DNA of 64,000 bases from Dehalococcoidia bacterium. Its GTDB lineage: Bacteria > Chloroflexota > Dehalococcoidia > Lucifugimonadales > UBA3495. Made by a program: the position numbers and the translations under genes. Positions within the stretch are counted from its first letter, which is position 1; each line of letters begins with the position of its first letter. Below, piece by piece: positions 21,076 through 27,180 of this stretch. The notes under the pieces were generated by a model. That model searched no databases, was not told the DNA's origin, and worked only from the letters and a program-made list of their open reading frames with translations. The stretch lies in assembly GCA_965204905.1 (NCBI GenBank), contig OZ242042.1:4012891-4076890 (forward strand). Reading direction: 5' to 3'.

Positions 21076-21318
21076 ATGATGAAGACGACCGTAAGAGCAA
21101 CGTACTCCAATGGAACGCTTACGCCCGAGCACGCCCTGGACCTTGCTGAAGGCGAGCAGGTAACCGTGACGGTAGAGTCTCAACCCAGCTTTTCTTTCGC
21201 GCCGTCGGGGCACTCCGCCGTTGATATTCTGGACGAAGCCCCCGGTCAACTCCTCTTCAAAACTGCTGCCGACGTGGCGGCATACCTGGAAGAAGAGCGG
21301 GCGTCATGGGATCGCTGA
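21076..21318 (+). CDS. Antitoxin, AF2212/DUF104-like
   Basis: TVRATYSNGTLTPEHALDLAEGEQVTVTV, C-terminal EERASWDR; overlaps the PIN gene. Confidence 0.75.
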   Translation: MMKTTVRATYSNGTLTPEHALDLAEGEQVTVTVESQPSFSFAPSGHSAVDILDEAPGQLLFKTAADVAAYLEEERASWDR

Positions 21319-21746
21319 TCCTTCCCGATGACGGGCCGATATATCTCGATGCTAACGGGTTTATCTACAGCGTAGAGCGGGTTGAGCCTTACCGCGCGTT
21401 GCTGGACCCTATGTGGCGACAGGCCCAGGCCGGTGTGTTCCACATCATAAGCAGCGAACTGGCGATGCTGGAAACCCTGGTCAAGCCGCTGCGTGAGGGC
21501 AACACGGTTCTTGAGTCGCTATTCCGGAGGCTCTTCGACGCCGATGAGGTCAGCCTGATACCAGCTACACGTGCGCTATGGGAAGAGGCGGCCCGATTGC
21601 GCGCCGAAACCGGGCTCAGGACGCCGGACGCGCTTCACGCGGCAACGGCGTTGCGCGCCCGGTGCACGCTCTTCGTCACCAACGACGGCGCCTTTCGCCG
21701 TGTGGAGGGTCTCCCCGTAGTCGTTCTGGACGACCTCATCACCTGA
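21306..21746 (+). CDS. vapC: PIN-domain VapC toxin
   Basis: IYLDANGFIY, ETLVKP, LRTPDALHAATA, FVTND. Confidence 0.88.
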   Translation: MGSLILPDDGPIYLDANGFIYSVERVEPYRALLDPMWRQAQAGVFHIISSELAMLETLVKPLREGNTVLESLFRRLFDADEVSLIPATRALWEEAARLRAETGLRTPDALHAATALRARCTLFVTNDGAFRRVEGLPVVVLDDLIT

Positions 21747-21873
21747 CACTGAGGGTCGGACCGAAGCGCGGCGCTCGCAATGACAAGGGGGTATGCGTGA
21801 GGTCAATGGCGCGGTTGCCAAGTGGGGGGATTCGTGCCAGAATCGGCTAAATTCAGCAGGGGATGAAAGGATT

Positions 21874-23595
21874 ATGCAGTTGCGAATTATGTCGCCCGCC
21901 GCGGCGCGGGTGGATTTCAAGGTGCCGCCGGCGCCGCGTTTGGACACGCTGGAGGGCAAGACCATCGGCCTGTACGACAACATGACCGGCGGCGCCGGCG
22001 TGGCCGTTGACCGGGTGGCCGAGCACATCGGCCGGCGCTTCTCCGGCGTGAAGTTTGAGAGCTACGGCGGCCCCCGGCGCGATGGACGGCCGGCGCTCAG
22101 CCGGGGCGTCCACATCGACGAGGCGGAGGCGGCAATCATCGCCAACGAGGTTGACGCGATGGTGGGGGCGGCGGCGCATTGAGGGGGCTGCACGTCGTGG
22201 CTTGCCCACGACATGGTAGCGATGGAGAAGGCCGGGATTCCCGCCGTCGGCATCGCTGCGCGCAGCTTCGCACGGGCGTGGCAGTCCTGCGTGGACGGCT
22301 GGGGACAGCCGGCGACGGCGTTCGTCACGATTCCCCACGCCTGCACCGGACAGCAGGCCGATTACATCCACTCGATGGTGGATGAGCAGATTGATAACAT
22401 CATCCTGGGCCTGACCCGGATGTCCACGACCGCCGACCTGTCCAGCATGACCAACGGGCACAGCGAGACCGACGTGTTCACGGTGACGCTGGACGAATCG
22501 CCGTGGGGCATCGACGCGGTGAACCGCTTCATGGAGGAGCGGGACTGGAGCGACGGGATGCCCGTGGTGCCGCCCACGCCGGAGTTGGTGGAGGCGATGC
22601 TGAAGGGCACGCGGCGCGCTCCTCAGGACGTGGTGATGGTGATGGAGCCTGGGTTCGGCTTGGCGACGGTGGAGAAGATCGCCATCAACGCCGTCATGGC
22701 GGGATGCCGGCCGGAGCAGTTCCCCATCCTGCTGGCGGCCATCGAGTGCATCGCGCAGCCGGAGAGCAACCACCGGGACATGCAGGTGTCGGGGCATACC
22801 GAAGCGCCGCTGATCCTGGTGAACGGGCCGATTGCGGACCGGGCGGGCATCAACTACGGCACGTCGGCCATGGGGCCGGGCGTGGTCAACAAGGCCAACA
22901 CCGCCATCGGGCGGGCGCTGCGGCTGTGCCTGATCAACATCGGCTACTGCAAGGCGGGCGCGGGCGACCCCAACTTCATCGGGCTGCCCACCAAGTTCGG
23001 CATGTGCATCGCCGAGAACGAGGCAGTCAGCCCGTGGCAGCCGTATCACGTGGACAAGGGGTTCCGGCCCGACGAGAGCGCGGTAACGGTAGTGACGGTA
23101 ACCGGGCCGACGGACGTGCTGGACAACGCCTCGAAGAATCACCTGGATACGCTGAACAACATCGCGTCGATGATGTTCTACCGTCATGCCGGCGGCGGAG
23201 CGTGGATCAAGGGCCACCAAACGGCGCAGGTGGGACACACCAACCAGCGGGTGCCTTTCCAGGGGCCGTACCATCCCATCATGCTCAGCCCGTCGCGCGC
23301 GGTGATCCTGCACAACGCCGGGTTCAGCAAGCGGGATGCCCAGGAGTGGCTGCACGAGCGCTGCCGCGCGTCGGTGCAGGACGCCATCCGCAACGGCGTG
23401 CCGACGGACGAGAACGGCAAGTGGCTGGCGCATCCCGAGTTGCAGCACCTGGCCGACGATCCGGAGGCGACGATTCCCGCGCTGGAGGATCCGGAGCAGT
23501 ACCTGCTGTGGGTCACCGGTGGGTCAACCCACTACGCCAACTTCTTCTACGGGACGTACGGCATCGCGACGGTGCCGGTGGAGGACGTGGGGTAG
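21874..23595 (+). CDS. UGSC-family selenoprotein (573 aa, Sec103, U-G-G-C motif) fused to its conserved partner domain
   Basis: ORFs 21793..22182 and 22213..23595 share a frame and are separated only by TGA 22180-22182; readthrough gives AAAH-U-GGCTSWLAHDMVAMEKAGIP; SECIS-like hairpin follows; ATG 21874 follows GAAAGG. Confidence 0.85.
22191..22215 (+). promoter_or_regulatory. Candidate bacterial SECIS element
   Basis: Perfect stem GTCGTGG (22194-22200) / CCACGAC (22206-22212), loop CTTGC containing G; 11 nt lie between the UGA and the stem, which extends to 10 bp with one mismatch. Confidence 0.7.
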
Positions 23596-24065: not shown

Positions 24066-24524
24066 ATGCCTGCGGTTTGGGACGAGTCTAGTTGGGCGGT
24101 ATTCGGCGCTCTTCTGAGAGGCGACGGTTTTTCTCAGGAAGAGGCTGTGCAGTATGTGAACTGTTCGGACAGGGCAGTGAAGCAAGCAAATCGCGTTCGC
24201 CTTAAGGGGGCTCGTGCCGTCTGGATAGCGGTTGTGACGAAGGAGGTCACTGTCGCGGATGCCGACGCTCTGGTTAAGCGGTTCGAGGGAGACCATTGGG
24301 AACAGACGTTAGCATTGAAACGGCTACGGGATGGTGAGATCACGGAGTTGAGGCATCATCAAGTTGTCAGTACCGATGGCGCGACCGCTTTTCAGGATAT
24401 GATGCGCAGGTTTCGGGAAACGCCGGCGCCCGATTGGTCGTTGACCGAAGAGCAGATAGCGGAGGGGGTAGAACTTGCCGAGGTGGGTTTGGCTGAGGAT
24501 GCCGAAACATGGCCCGGTTACTGA
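24066..24524 (+). CDS. Putative antitoxin of the downstream MazF with an unrecognised N-terminal domain
   Basis: Overlaps the mazF start; acidic C-terminus LAEVGLAEDAETWPGY. Confidence 0.6.
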   Translation: MPAVWDESSWAVFGALLRGDGFSQEEAVQYVNCSDRAVKQANRVRLKGARAVWIAVVTKEVTVADADALVKRFEGDHWEQTLALKRLRDGEITELRHHQVVSTDGATAFQDMMRRFRETPAPDWSLTEEQIAEGVELAEVGLAEDAETWPGY

Positions 24525-24859
24525 GGGGCGAGATAAGATGGGTGAACATCGAACCTGCCAATCAGGTAGTGGGGCATGAACAGGGCAATCGGCGTCCCGC
24601 CCTCATACTGAGCAACGACCGTTTCAATGCCGCATCGCAGTTGGTTATTGTAGCGTTGATCGGCTCGTCGGAAGCTAATCGGGTTCGCGCGACTGCCGTT
24701 CAAATCCAGTCGGTTGAGATGCCGAACACTCCGTCATGGGTTTTGACAGAGCAGATCCGAACGTTATCTACACGGCGGTTAGGAGACCTGATCGGGAGGG
24801 TGTCCGAAGAGGAATTTACGAAAGTTCTGGAAATGGTTTTTCGGCTCATGTACCAGTAA
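24509..24859 (+). CDS. mazF: PemK/MazF family toxin
   Basis: RGEIRWV, GHEQGNRRPALILSNDRFN, EQIRTLSTRRL. Confidence 0.9.
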   Translation: MARLLRGEIRWVNIEPANQVVGHEQGNRRPALILSNDRFNAASQLVIVALIGSSEANRVRATAVQIQSVEMPNTPSWVLTEQIRTLSTRRLGDLIGRVSEEEFTKVLEMVFRLMYQ

Positions 24860-24985: not shown

Positions 24986-26029
24986 GTGGACCCGCTGCTT
25001 GAAGTCAAGAATCTACAAACGTACTTCTTTACCTACGAAGGCGTCGTCAAAGCGGTTGACGACGTCACCTACGAAGTGATGCCGGGCGAAACGCTGGGGC
25101 TGGTGGGCGAAAGCGGATGCGGCAAGAGCGTGAGCGCGCTGTCGCTGATGCGCCTGATTCCGGATCCTCCCGGCAAGACCATTGGCGGTGAGGTGCTGTT
25201 CGACGGAGAGGACATTCTCCAGGTCGATATGGACGATATGCGCCGCATCCGTGGCGCAAAGATGGCCATGGTGTTCCAGGAACCCATGACGTCGCTGAAC
25301 CCGGTGCTGACGCTAGACCGGCAACTGACCGAGACCATCCAGCTGCACATGGGGAAGTCGCGCGATGATGCCCGTCAGGACGCGGTGAACCTGCTGGCGC
25401 AGGTGGGCATCCCCGACCCTGAACGGCGCATCCGCCAGTATCCGCACCAGTTCAGCGGCGGGATGCGTCAGCGCGTGATGATCGCCATGGCGCTGAGCTG
25501 CAACCCCAAGCTGATCATCGCCGACGAGCCGACCACGGCACTGGACGTTACCATTCAGGCGCAGATCCTGGAGCTGATGAAGTCGCTGACGGATACCCTG
25601 GGCGTGGCGCTCATAATCATCACGCACAACCTGGGCGTGGTGGCGCGGTACGCCGACCGGGTGAACGTGATGTACGCCGGCAAGATCATTGAACGCGGCT
25701 CGGCGCTGGAGATTTACACCAACCCCAGGCATCCTTACACCGTGGGCCTGCTGGACTCGGTGCCGCGACTGGACCAGCGGCTTACCGACGACGAGGGCAA
25801 CGCGGCCAAGCTGGTGCCCATCGAAGGGCAGCCGCCCGACCTGGTGAACCTGCCGCAAGGCTGTTCGTTCCGCGCCCGTTGCCGCTGGGCCGTGGACAAG
25901 TGCGCCACGGAGGCGCCGCCACTGATGCAGGTGGAGAGCAGCAGCGGCGAGGAACCGCACGTGTCGGCCTGCTGGCGCTCGGAAGTGCTGGGCGTGCAGG
26001 CGCTGAGCTACGCCATGGGAACAGCGTAG
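24986..26029 (+). CDS. oppD: Peptide/nickel ABC transporter ATP-binding protein (OppD/DppD)
   Basis: GESGCGKS, YPHQFSGGMRQR, ADEPTTALD, HPYT and C-terminal Cys cluster. Confidence 0.9.
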   Translation: MDPLLEVKNLQTYFFTYEGVVKAVDDVTYEVMPGETLGLVGESGCGKSVSALSLMRLIPDPPGKTIGGEVLFDGEDILQVDMDDMRRIRGAKMAMVFQEPMTSLNPVLTLDRQLTETIQLHMGKSRDDARQDAVNLLAQVGIPDPERRIRQYPHQFSGGMRQRVMIAMALSCNPKLIIADEPTTALDVTIQAQILELMKSLTDTLGVALIIITHNLGVVARYADRVNVMYAGKIIERGSALEIYTNPRHPYTVGLLDSVPRLDQRLTDDEGNAAKLVPIEGQPPDLVNLPQGCSFRARCRWAVDKCATEAPPLMQVESSSGEEPHVSACWRSEVLGVQALSYAMGTA

Positions 26030-26139: not shown

Positions 26140-27180
26140 ATGACGACTGCCGAAATGCCGCAGACCGCCGAGACGCAGCCGGGCCATGGGGACGTGCTGC
26201 TGGAAGTCCGTGGCCTGAAAATGCACTTTCCCGTGACGTCTGGAATCCTGTTCCAGCGGGCGGTGGCCCACATCAAAGCCATTGACGGCGTGGATTTCAC
26301 GGTGCTGCGGGGCGAGACGCTGGGACTGGTGGGAGAGTCGGGCTGTGGAAAGACTACCACGGGCCGGTGCATCCTGCGCCTGTACAAGCCCACGGACGGT
26401 GAAATCTGGTTCGACGGCACAGAGATCGCCAACGCGCGCACCAACCAGATGCGGGCGATGCGGCGGCAGATGCAGATCATATTCCAGGACCCGTACAGCT
26501 CACTGAACCCCCGCATGACTGCCGGCAACATCATCGGCGAGCCGTTGGCGGTGCATGGGCTGGTCAACAACAAGCGGGAGTACCGGGAGCGGGTGGCCGA
26601 GCTTTTGAACAACGTGGGCCTGAACCCGTACATGGCCGACCGGTTCCCCCACGAGTTCAGCGGCGGACAGCGCCAGCGCATCGGCGTGGCGCGGGCATTG
26701 TCGGTTGACCCGTCGTTCATCGTGTGCGACGAGCCGGTGTCGGCGCTGGACGTGTCCATCCAGGCGCAGATCATCAACCTGCTGGAAGACCTGCAGGAAC
26801 GCTACGACCTGACCTATTTGTTCATCGCGCACGACCTGTCAGTGGTGCGACACATCAGCGACCGGGTGGCGGTGATGTACCTGGGCAAGATTGTCGAGAT
26901 TGCCGACCGAAACGCCATTTACGAGAATCCGCAGCATCCCTACACCCGGGCGCTGCTGTCGGCGGTTCCGATTCCCGACCCGGTGCTGGACGCGCAGCGC
27001 GAACGCATCATCCTGTCGGGCGAGGTGCCCAGCCCTTTGAATCCGCCCAGCGGCTGCGTGTTCCATCCCCGCTGTCCGCTGGCGACGGACGACTGCATGC
27101 GGGTTATCCCGGAGGCGCGGGAGGTGATGCCGGACCACATTGCGGCGTGCATCAACGTGCCGGGGTACGGGCCGTACTGA
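26140..27180 (+). CDS. oppF: Peptide ABC transporter ATP-binding protein (OppF/DppF)
   Basis: [41 protein letters not shown]. Confidence 0.9.

Follow-up and report, generated by a model that had tools for sequence, protein, structure and literature searches.

GrdB, GrdF and PrdB are selenoproteins with a U-x-x-C motif (U being selenocysteine) that work together with a second, substrate-binding polypeptide, and the minimal selenocysteine insertion sequence (SECIS) of fdhF, like the bSECISearch model, is a hairpin within the coding sequence with an 11-nt spacer and a small apical loop containing G. The 'UGSC-containing protein' has been listed since 2007-2008 as a selenoprotein family of unknown function (PMC1976440, PMC2398784, PMC9312934, PMC13188914) and few selenoprotein families are more abundant in ocean metagenomes (PMC2398784, PMC13188914); the accessible portions of the literature on UGSC selenoproteins contain no assignment of function, and by title and abstract nothing on topic was found for SAR202 together with selenocysteine. 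A UGSC/Unknown_1 fusion selenoprotein was reported in 2008 from Global Ocean Sampling metagenomes (Figure S1A of PMC2398784). Here we describe a gene at 21874-23595 (+) in a stretch of 64,000 nt (the window; contig OZ242042.1, positions 4,012,891 to 4,076,890, assembly GCA_965204905.1) from a Dehalococcoidia bacterium, which is interrupted by one in-frame TGA and probably encodes a selenoprotein consisting of a UGSC domain fused to a large partner domain.

The locus is close to the UGSC family (PF24696; NF041046; 'UGSC-containing protein' of Zhang & Gladyshev) in that the Pfam model fits its first 181 residues from end to end, the predicted selenocysteine occupies the U/C position of the family in U-x-x-C-T-S-W, and the hairpin register is that of the eight stand-alone UGSC genes of the same genome. 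It differs in having H-U-G-G-C instead of D-U-G-S-C, and in being fused to a partner of 370 residues, whereas the family members stand alone at ~150-200 residues. As in the UGSC/Unknown_1 fusion, the partner domain also occurs alone and has one conserved Cys; as far as the available text of that report goes, the partner domain (residues 205-573) is probably its 'Unknown_1', and the architecture is very probably one already described (PMC2398784). The original prediction, which took the protein for an uncharacterised redox system, thus overstated its novelty, since UGSC is a long-known abundant family and the fusion dates from 2008 (PMC2398784). The accessible parts of the 2008 report say nothing of SECIS covariation, of the fold or of several gene pairs within a single genome (PMC2398784). 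What is new here is the formal SECIS covariation, a proposal for the UGSC fold, a partner domain without known fold or family and the expansion to nine modules in one genome. The selenoprotein itself will not surprise a specialist; that UGSC is regularly paired with an uncharacterised domain of no matching structure opens a way into a family long listed without a function.

The frame is open from ATG 21874 to TAG 23593-23595 (+), and because TGA 22180-22182, its sole interruption, breaks it, calling of open reading frames (ORFs) with table 11 returns two ORFs, 21793..22182 and 22213..23595. That these two ORFs share one frame split only by the TGA had been pointed out in the original prediction, and the observation was accurate in every detail. 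With TGA read as U, the product is a protein of 573 residues with the junction ...VDAMVGAAAH-U-GGCTSWLAHDMVAMEKAGIPAVGI..., and the predicted features are as follows.

21874..23595 (+), coding sequence of the putative fused UGSC/partner-domain selenoprotein, complete, 573 residues, with stop TAG 23593-23595, from orthologue comparison
21886..22416 (+), UGSC domain, residues 5-181, matching positions 2-171 of 172 in PF24696 and modelled by AlphaFold2 as a parallel alpha/beta, Rossmann/flavodoxin-like fold
22180..22182 (+), UGA codon probably read as selenocysteine, residue 103, from comparative conservation, Cys-aligned homologues and position in the model
22180..22191 (+), U-G-G-C redox-type motif (U103, C106) with the invariant His102 before it, alike in 80 orthologues
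22187..22220 (+), SECIS-type stem-loop, from RNAfold, orthologue conservation, frozen synonymous sites and covariation
22417..22485 (+), inter-domain linker, residues ~182-204, of lower model confidence and variable in alignment A1
22486..23592 (+), partner domain, residues 205-573, a conserved alignment block with a confident model and no Pfam or NCBIfam family
22705..22707 (+), codon of Cys278 in the M-A-G-C motif, the one well-conserved Cys of the partner domain by the counts in alignment A2

A genome scan restricted to one genome per species, of which the best 80 of 137 relatives were kept, gave 81 sequences including the window. All 80 relatives are metagenome-assembled genomes of Dehalococcoidia, Chloroflexota or SAR202, except one labelled 'uncultured bacterium', and the tblastn matches in these loci extended from residue 1 to ~572 with 75-99% protein identity. 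We found that the codon aligned with 22180-22182 was TGA in 80/80 loci, inside an invariant H-*-G-G-C-T-S-W, and that the 30 nt between the TGA and ATG 22213 encode, in frame, the most conserved motif of the family, G-G-C-T-S-W-L-A-H-D, again in all 80. The codon of His102 preceding the UGA was CAT in 81/81 sequences. Counting the predicted selenocysteine, which is residue 103 in every one of the 81, total length ranged from 571 to 583 residues, and the start codon equivalent to 21874 was ATG in 77, GTG in 3 and ATC in 1; on this alignment the gene boundaries are conserved across orthologues. The presence of the same TGA in 80 independently assembled genomes excludes an assembly error, a possibility raised with the original prediction. 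In addition, Logan contigs from four public runs had no difference at 22180-22182 among the differences listed, and one RNA-library contig, derived from a relative (X19 record 10; 9 differences over 22047-22217), reads across the TGA, such libraries possibly containing DNA as well.

The Pfam UGSC model (PF24696) spans the TGA and matches residues 5-181 end to end at 93 bits (E 3.1e-26; cut-off 25 bits), so that the TGA sits mid-domain; the C-terminal ORF alone keeps only the last third of the profile. A search of 1.8 billion cluster representatives returned 4755 relatives at E <= 0.001, and among the best 150 of those, 35 proteins of 520-600 residues span both halves. In alignment A2, which comprises 125 representatives, the U/C motif is covered by 39 rows, with Cys opposite the UGA in 30 and C-x-x-C in 25, typically as D-C-G-S-C-T-S-W. 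These Cys-form homologues run continuously through the TGA position with similarity on both sides, which was a check proposed with the original prediction.

Metagenomes were scanned with a profile made of Cys forms only, and the 80 loci obtained, together with 5 distant genome loci, gave a set of 85 (L118-L202). The motif site was mapped by local alignment and the 77 loci with a score >= 60 were counted; L121, L122, L137, L165, L177, L193, L198 and L200 scored < 60 and were left out. The aligned codon was TGA in 63, TGC or TGT in 11 (one of which, L120, is a TGA form misregistered in the mapping, as is L121, with the stop three codons 5' of the Cys picked) and another codon in 3. To judge from the aligned codons, selenocysteine is the majority state of the UGSC family; the Global Ocean Sampling table, in the part accessible, lists 255 selenocysteine versus 21 Cys forms (PMC2398784).

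A perfect 7-bp hairpin after an 11-nt spacer had also been predicted. RNAfold placed it as described, with an inner stem of 7 perfect pairs (22194-22200 with 22206-22212) closing a CUUGC loop (22201-22205) at 11 nt from the UGA, and added an outer 5-bp stem (22187-22191 with 22216-22220); both the hairpin and the UGA are kept in relatives. The folding energy, taken alone, is unexceptional. Across the window and the 80 orthologues the inner stem is near-invariant, the changes being C29U, which leaves a G-U pair, and in one sequence the double change G14A/C32U, which turns G-C into A-U. Third-codon-position entropy for codons -1 to +10 was 0.33 bits (9 eligible codons) versus 1.08 bits for the comparison set, 111 conserved codons elsewhere in -300..+600 nt (Mann-Whitney p = 3.4e-5, which like the other p-values here is optimistic because the relatives are not independent). 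Entropy of <= 0.1 bit was reached by 4/9 codons inside this span versus 0/111 outside, and no other sliding position in the 900 nt covered had an entropy as low.

The hairpin was also compared among more diverse relatives, using loci that scored >= 80, had TGA, TGC or TGT at the aligned codon, contained no N and differed from one another over 48 nt (71 loci, 61 with TGA and 10 with Cys). Of the 61 TGA forms, 57 had a stem of 6 bp or more without interruption, and 51 had the loop centre at a distance of exactly 23 nt from the first base of the UGA; the median stem was 8 bp in these forms versus 5 bp in the 10 Cys forms (p = 2.7e-4). For covariation we used an ungapped alignment of 62 TGA forms and a helix of 8 pairs, with a slid partner strand and 500 shuffles as controls. 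Paired cells amounted to 88.9% versus 20-49% with the partner slid, and changes were found on both sides in 7/8 pairs; there were 23 compensatory cells versus 4.3 +/- 1.9 in the shuffles, none of the 500 reaching 23, and the covariation score was 0.225 versus 0.105 in shuffles and <= 0.132 with the partner slid. For example, some sequences have T-S-L-L-V-R-D in place of T-S-W-L-A-H-D and retain the pairing. The hairpin is found in the same place in all nine UGSC genes of the genome.

Based on these comparisons, decoding of UGA 22180 as selenocysteine by a downstream SelB-type hairpin is strongly supported: formed from the codons of the conserved T-S-W-x-x-H-D motif and lying 11 nt 3' of the UGA, the hairpin would direct insertion of selenocysteine at residue 103. 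By analogy it resembles the SECIS of E. coli fdhF in being a hairpin inside the coding sequence with an 11-nt spacer, a small G-containing loop and conserved position and pairing, but it differs in showing no relation to any curated Rfam family, and SelB-binding is only predicted here. The apical loop is CUUGC in the window and mostly a 3-nt loop of GUG type in the relatives.

Apart from the relatedness of the sequences, several observations weigh against a selenocysteine-decoded UGSC protein directed by this hairpin. No 75Se labelling or peptide data were found for this or any UGSC protein. The folding energy of this GC-rich sequence does not differ from that of dinucleotide shuffles (z = -0.06; 88/200 shuffles fold at least as well), an Rfam scan of 22100-22320 at E <= 10 returned no SECIS family and only a chance 'Prion_pknot' row, and the minimum free energy z against synonymous recoding, with medians of -2.37 in selenocysteine forms and -1.69 in Cys forms, does not separate the two significantly (p = 0.10). 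Two of the 10 Cys forms (L123, L132) retain stems of 7-10 bp, and the conserved amino-acid motif supplies part of the hairpin potential. Moreover, NCBIfam UGSC_fam (NF041046) gave 79.2 bits versus a curated cut-off of 125, and none of the nine UGSC matches in the genome diverges more from the family than the window copy (PF24696 88.6 bits versus 131-185). On the other side, the slid controls keep the relatedness of the sequences yet fall far short of the pairing observed. We consider it very likely, from comparative sequence evidence, that the two 'separate' ORFs are one gene for a 573-residue selenoprotein cut by gene callers, and a selenocysteine-decoded, SECIS-directed fusion of UGSC and partner domain appears, with good confidence, the best explanation of the whole; the comparison thereby supports the protein originally predicted, with its variant H-U-G-G-C motif and second domain.

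The genome, from a bacterium of Dehalococcoidia/SAR202 type to judge by its relatives, is 96.7% complete and contains selA (557 bits), selB (365 bits), selD (370 bits) and tRNA-Sec (66 bits), all above the curated family cut-offs, in keeping with the use of selenocysteine that had been foreseen for this lineage. The selD gene (C1:2053185-2054102 (+), L013) itself has one in-frame TGA, suggesting that SelD probably contains selenocysteine. Outside the window, a gene of the GRDB family (PF07355, 47 bits; C1:1246635-1247852 (+), corresponding to L117 1136-2353) is likewise split by an in-frame TGA; read through, it gives a protein of 405 residues with ...VDLVFLTPT-U-PLC-THAVSVLARVFESAGLTTVSIV..., the PF07355 profile ending at the residue just before the predicted selenocysteine (position 347 of 347). 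It is a probable further selenoprotein gene split by ORF calling. Heavy selenium use is thus documented in a sponge-associated or marine Dehalococcoidia lineage.

Exactly nine PF24696 matches are present in the genome, each with one in-frame TGA. Eight of them are stand-alone UGSC genes, with U-G-S-C in 7 and U-G-G-C in 1, and there are also eight stand-alone paralogues of the partner domain, with 34-40% identity to residues ~200-570 of the window protein. Each stand-alone UGSC gene lies within ~1.2 kb, on the same strand, of one stand-alone partner-domain gene (8/8), which bears out the statement in the original prediction that such a domain is the usual companion of UGSC proteins. In two of these modules the UGSC gene precedes the partner gene, and in six it follows. 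Such fusion, together with the conserved adjacency, argues that both units may work as one enzyme. The module loci (L106-L116) lie on C1 near 629, 752, 1326, 1970, 2039, 2495, 2573 and 3024 kb. Gaps within modules, where present, hold unrelated small genes (EEP nuclease, DUF4058, family-less ORFs), and small unrelated genes between or beside the partners in several modules also include PaREP1-like and PIN genes. What lies around the eight modules varies from one to the next (PIN, PaREP1, DUF4058, EEP nuclease, IstB, SDR, ring-hydroxylating beta subunit, DNA polymerase III alpha), and no third gene recurs beside the eight stand-alone modules.

In a survey of the phylum, a match was found in 13/121 genomes, a count that includes G000 (the genome of the window) and G038, and fused one-TGA forms with 32-36% identity were reported in other families of the phylum (G013, G044, G027, G001). 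Two of these distant fused forms, L120 (G027:C70) and L121 (G001:C345), with 35-36% identity, read V-G-H-*-S-T-C-A-P-A-V, which suggests a variant H-U-S-T-C motif; according to the phylum search, each match contains one TGA. Another fused relative, L118 (G013:C245:422-1663), with 32% identity, is listed with two in-frame TGAs and may represent either a form with two selenocysteines or a disrupted gene.

At the third position of the motif, G instead of S is found in the window and all 80 orthologues, so that the motif is U-G-G-C with U-x-x-C kept. The same G occurs in one stand-alone paralogue of the genome and in the Cys-form representative P0127 (C-G-G-C), whereas most other Cys-form representatives have C-G-S-C. 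An AlphaFold2 model of the full-length protein, computed on the 125-sequence alignment, had a predicted local distance difference test score (pLDDT) of 91.8 and a predicted template modelling score (pTM) of 0.94, indicating a confident relative placement of the two domains; linker blocks within residues 181-200 had pLDDT values of 72 and 58. The UGSC domain (residues ~1-181) is modelled in the order beta-alpha-beta-alpha-beta-alpha-beta-alpha-beta, with U103 between strand 95-101 and helix 104-119, at the N-terminus of the helix. VIA matches of the full-length model covered only residues 24-188 (Z 9-11.6, 112-161 aligned residues) and were of Rossmann/flavodoxin-like type; Foldseek against the PDB gave flavodoxin-like and other alpha/beta proteins with a best E of 5e-4. 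No thioredoxin-fold or GrdB/PrdB entry was among the 50 VIA matches listed, an absence from the listing that is not an exclusion. The model suggests a Rossmann/flavodoxin-like fold for the UGSC domain, at odds with the 'likely Trx-like fold' given in the accessible part of PMC2398784.

The partner domain carries the motifs W-x-D-G-x-P-x-x-P-P-T, N-A-V-M-A-G-C, V-N-G-P, I-G-R-A-x-R-L, A-E-N-E and S-P-W. Searches of Pfam (E <= 10) and NCBIfam (E <= 1) with this domain and 7 stand-alone homologues found no family. Modelled alone, it had a pLDDT of 91.6 and a pTM of 0.92, and no PDB entry matched it in VIA at Z >= 8 (best Z 5.9 for 1fnk, 91 residues aligned, root-mean-square deviation 3.6); the best Foldseek E was 8.8e-3 (7xky), and the profile of alignment A2 against PDB sequences found only a universal stress protein at E 1.5. 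As modelled, it is thus a domain of ~370 residues without a convincing match among solved structures, for which a new fold is not claimed. G277, G318, R347 and E381 are invariant in 125/125 representatives, and D227, T235, N272, N342, D365, K374 and W388 are at least 90% conserved. Residue 278, modelled in the loop before helix 280-294, is Cys in 112/125 and Ala in 11/125 representatives, and Cys278 is kept in 47/48 metagenomic selenocysteine forms with a locatable motif. Stand-alone partner-domain proteins number at least 8000 at E <= 0.001; the 120 listed are all unnamed or 'hypothetical protein', and the named records among the matches listed include Burkholderiales, Tectimicrobiota, Dormibacteraeota and Dehalococcoidia. 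An Atlas search with the stand-alone homologue P0209 returned clusters auto-named 'thiol-disulfide oxidoreductase family', 'thioredoxin family' and 'hypothetical', with no Pfam family in common; we regard these names as leads only.

Nine UGSC selenoproteins, each tied to a copy of the partner domain, one by fusion and eight by adjacency, suggest that the chemistry is best sought in the partner domain, which would be well suited to structural and biochemical work and offers a concrete route into UGSC function. Taking the mechanistic logic of the U-x-x-C selenoprotein B subunits of glycine/D-proline reductase as a model, we tentatively propose, as a possibility argued from analogy, that the partner domain could be the substrate-binding catalytic part and the UGSC domain its built-in redox centre. 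Substrate would be bound in a pocket of the partner domain lined by R347, E381, K374 and D365, with Cys278 nearby; the selenol of U103 would attack a substrate-derived or Cys-bound intermediate, which C106 would then resolve as a selenenylsulfide, and the U103-x-x-C106 centre would deliver or accept reducing equivalents. The redox reading is favoured by the U-x-x-C geometry at a helix N-terminus in the model, by the strong preference for selenocysteine over Cys, and by a local motif resemblance to the GRDB-family gene of the same genome (LTPT-U-PLC-T...), in which a strand, U-x-x-C-T, a helix and then E-x-x-G-x-x-T-V follow each other, selenocysteine aligned to selenocysteine. The sub-threshold GrdB/GrdF matches described below also point this way, as do, merely as a lead, the 'thiol-disulfide oxidoreductase' names of the Atlas clusters. 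The likeness to GrdB/GrdF/PrdB (PF07355, TIGR01917), a U-x-x-C motif plus a second unit, would be one of working logic, and membership is not claimed.

A number of results count against the redox mechanism. The hhalign comparison of the UGSC and GRDB families places selenocysteine on selenocysteine but is insignificant (E 0.098, probability 0.6%, 28 columns), as are the sole sub-threshold NCBIfam matches of Cys-form homologues, to GrdB/GrdF at E 0.05-0.14, in a part of the profile that we take to be the region holding the selenocysteine of those proteins. The PF07355 profile matches none of the nine UGSC loci of the genome. Homology to GrdB/PrdB was not significant by PF07355, NCBIfam or hhalign, and the Pfam search of the partner domain at E <= 10 turned up no family of GrdE/PrdA type. 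Genomic context was also considered as a clue to function, and the neighbours of the window gene and of the modules give no clue to a substrate. The replacement of Cys278 by Ala in 11/125 representatives and its retention in 3/3 fused metagenomic forms without the U/C residue likewise speak against this mechanism, and the latter does not support an obligatory U103-C278 relay. Co-occurrence of U/C-x-x-C with Cys278 yielded no usable signal, either in the metagenomic loci or in the 39 rows of alignment A2, which had the motif Cys and Cys278 in 27, the motif Cys only in 3, Cys278 only in 6 and neither in 3.

The same observations bear on a reading in which the protein is a genuine selenoprotein but its UGSC domain is a carrier of Se/S or metal, a sensor or a regulatory thiol switch on a non-redox enzyme (hydrolase, lyase or isomerase). 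Invariance in the partner domain is confined to Arg347, Glu381 and two glycines, with no cysteines among them; besides the substitution at Cys278, some fused homologues have lost both motif cysteines with the partner domain intact, and there is a weak fold likeness to non-redox enzymes (chorismate mutase/Rid-like, class I fumarate hydratase, cyanuric acid hydrolase). These similarities, however, are all below the level at which the tool is meaningful (Z < 8), and U-x-x-C at a helix N-terminus, as modelled here, is a geometry typically seen at redox or nucleophilic centres. A strong preference for selenocysteine over Cys, such as the 63 TGA versus 11 Cys codons and the 255 versus 21 forms given above, is typical of catalytic, not structural, sites. 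A carrier or switch, the main rival, is in our view rather unlikely, if little more so than the redox mechanism. Unlikely too, and more so, is the boldest extension of the redox proposal, according to which UGSC and partner would form a widespread, unrecognised class of two-component selenoenzymes, fused in the present case, whose catalytic domain would have a new fold. Each of the nine modules in this SAR202-type genome would then serve an organic substrate of its own, with the selenol reductively cleaving bonds by glycine/proline reductase logic.

That the TGA is instead a true stop, separating two genes (a fragment of 102 residues and a 460-residue protein from ATG 22213) or marking a decaying pseudogene, is very improbable. 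It agrees with the split given by table 11 and with the databases: among the 120 best homologues listed, all have 449-471 residues and start after the TGA, and one truncated homologue of ~460 residues is named 'UGSC-like domain-containing protein' in UniRef. However, entries of ~460 residues are the expected output of a gene caller blind to selenocysteine, a split here would halve one Pfam domain and leave the 30 nt coding for G-G-C-T-S-W-L-A-H-D in 80/80 loci between the two genes, and the Cys-form homologues are continuous. ATG 22213, which had been noted to sit at the base of the hairpin without a clear ribosome-binding site, starts one base past the 3' arm of the inner stem; it has no Shine-Dalgarno sequence ahead and is a conserved internal Met, that of the H-D-M motif, encoded by ATG in 81/81 orthologous sequences. 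Nor would a pseudogene keep a single stop at one codon across relatives down to ~30% identity. Among the 120 best homologues listed, truncation at the selenocysteine codon is systematic in public protein databases, and with 4755 relatives at E <= 0.001 this points to a large selenoprotein family misannotated in public data, whose ~460-residue products lack the selenocysteine half of the redox domain.

Reading of the UGA as a standard amino acid (Trp, Gly or Cys), through a lineage-wide code change or near-cognate suppression, would give the same open frame as any read-through but is scarcely probable, given that the in-frame TGAs found were confined to the U-x-x-C position of the UGSC paralogues, selD and one GRDB-like gene (other matches in those searches had no internal stops and thus gave no sign of a general code change), that a dedicated tRNA-Sec, selA, selB and selD are present, that a position-specific hairpin covaries and that the aligned residue in homologues is Cys.

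Returning to the selenoprotein gene, two candidate signals were located upstream of its start codon.

21857..21871 (+), Shine-Dalgarno-like purine-rich tract (…AGGGGATGAAAGGA…) preceding ATG 21874
21815..21843 (+), promoter-like site from a consensus scan, TTGCCA, 17 nt, CAGAAT, with a TG extension, ~30 nt 5' of the start codon

A Shine-Dalgarno-like motif was present upstream of the equivalent start in 76/81 orthologous sequences. The promoter scan of the region found 2 sites versus 0.6 +/- 0.7 expected, and the site at 21815-21843 is a weak match only. The flanking genes, a PIN-domain gene upstream (21306-21746 (+)) and a MazF-type gene downstream (24509-24859 (+)), are unrelated, so that the selenoprotein gene appears to stand alone; other neighbours in the window include an M1-like peptidase and an alpha/beta hydrolase. 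The two flanking genes are both of toxin-antitoxin type, the first being VapC-like and the second MazF/PemK-like, and a 152-residue ORF of no Pfam family (24066-24524 (+)), the end of which is overlapped by the MazF/PemK-like ORF, could encode the antitoxin of the latter. Further downstream lie two consecutive genes for ABC transporter ATPases of the oligopeptide/dipeptide type (24986-26029 (+) and 26140-27180 (+)), each with ABC_tran and oligo_HPY domains.

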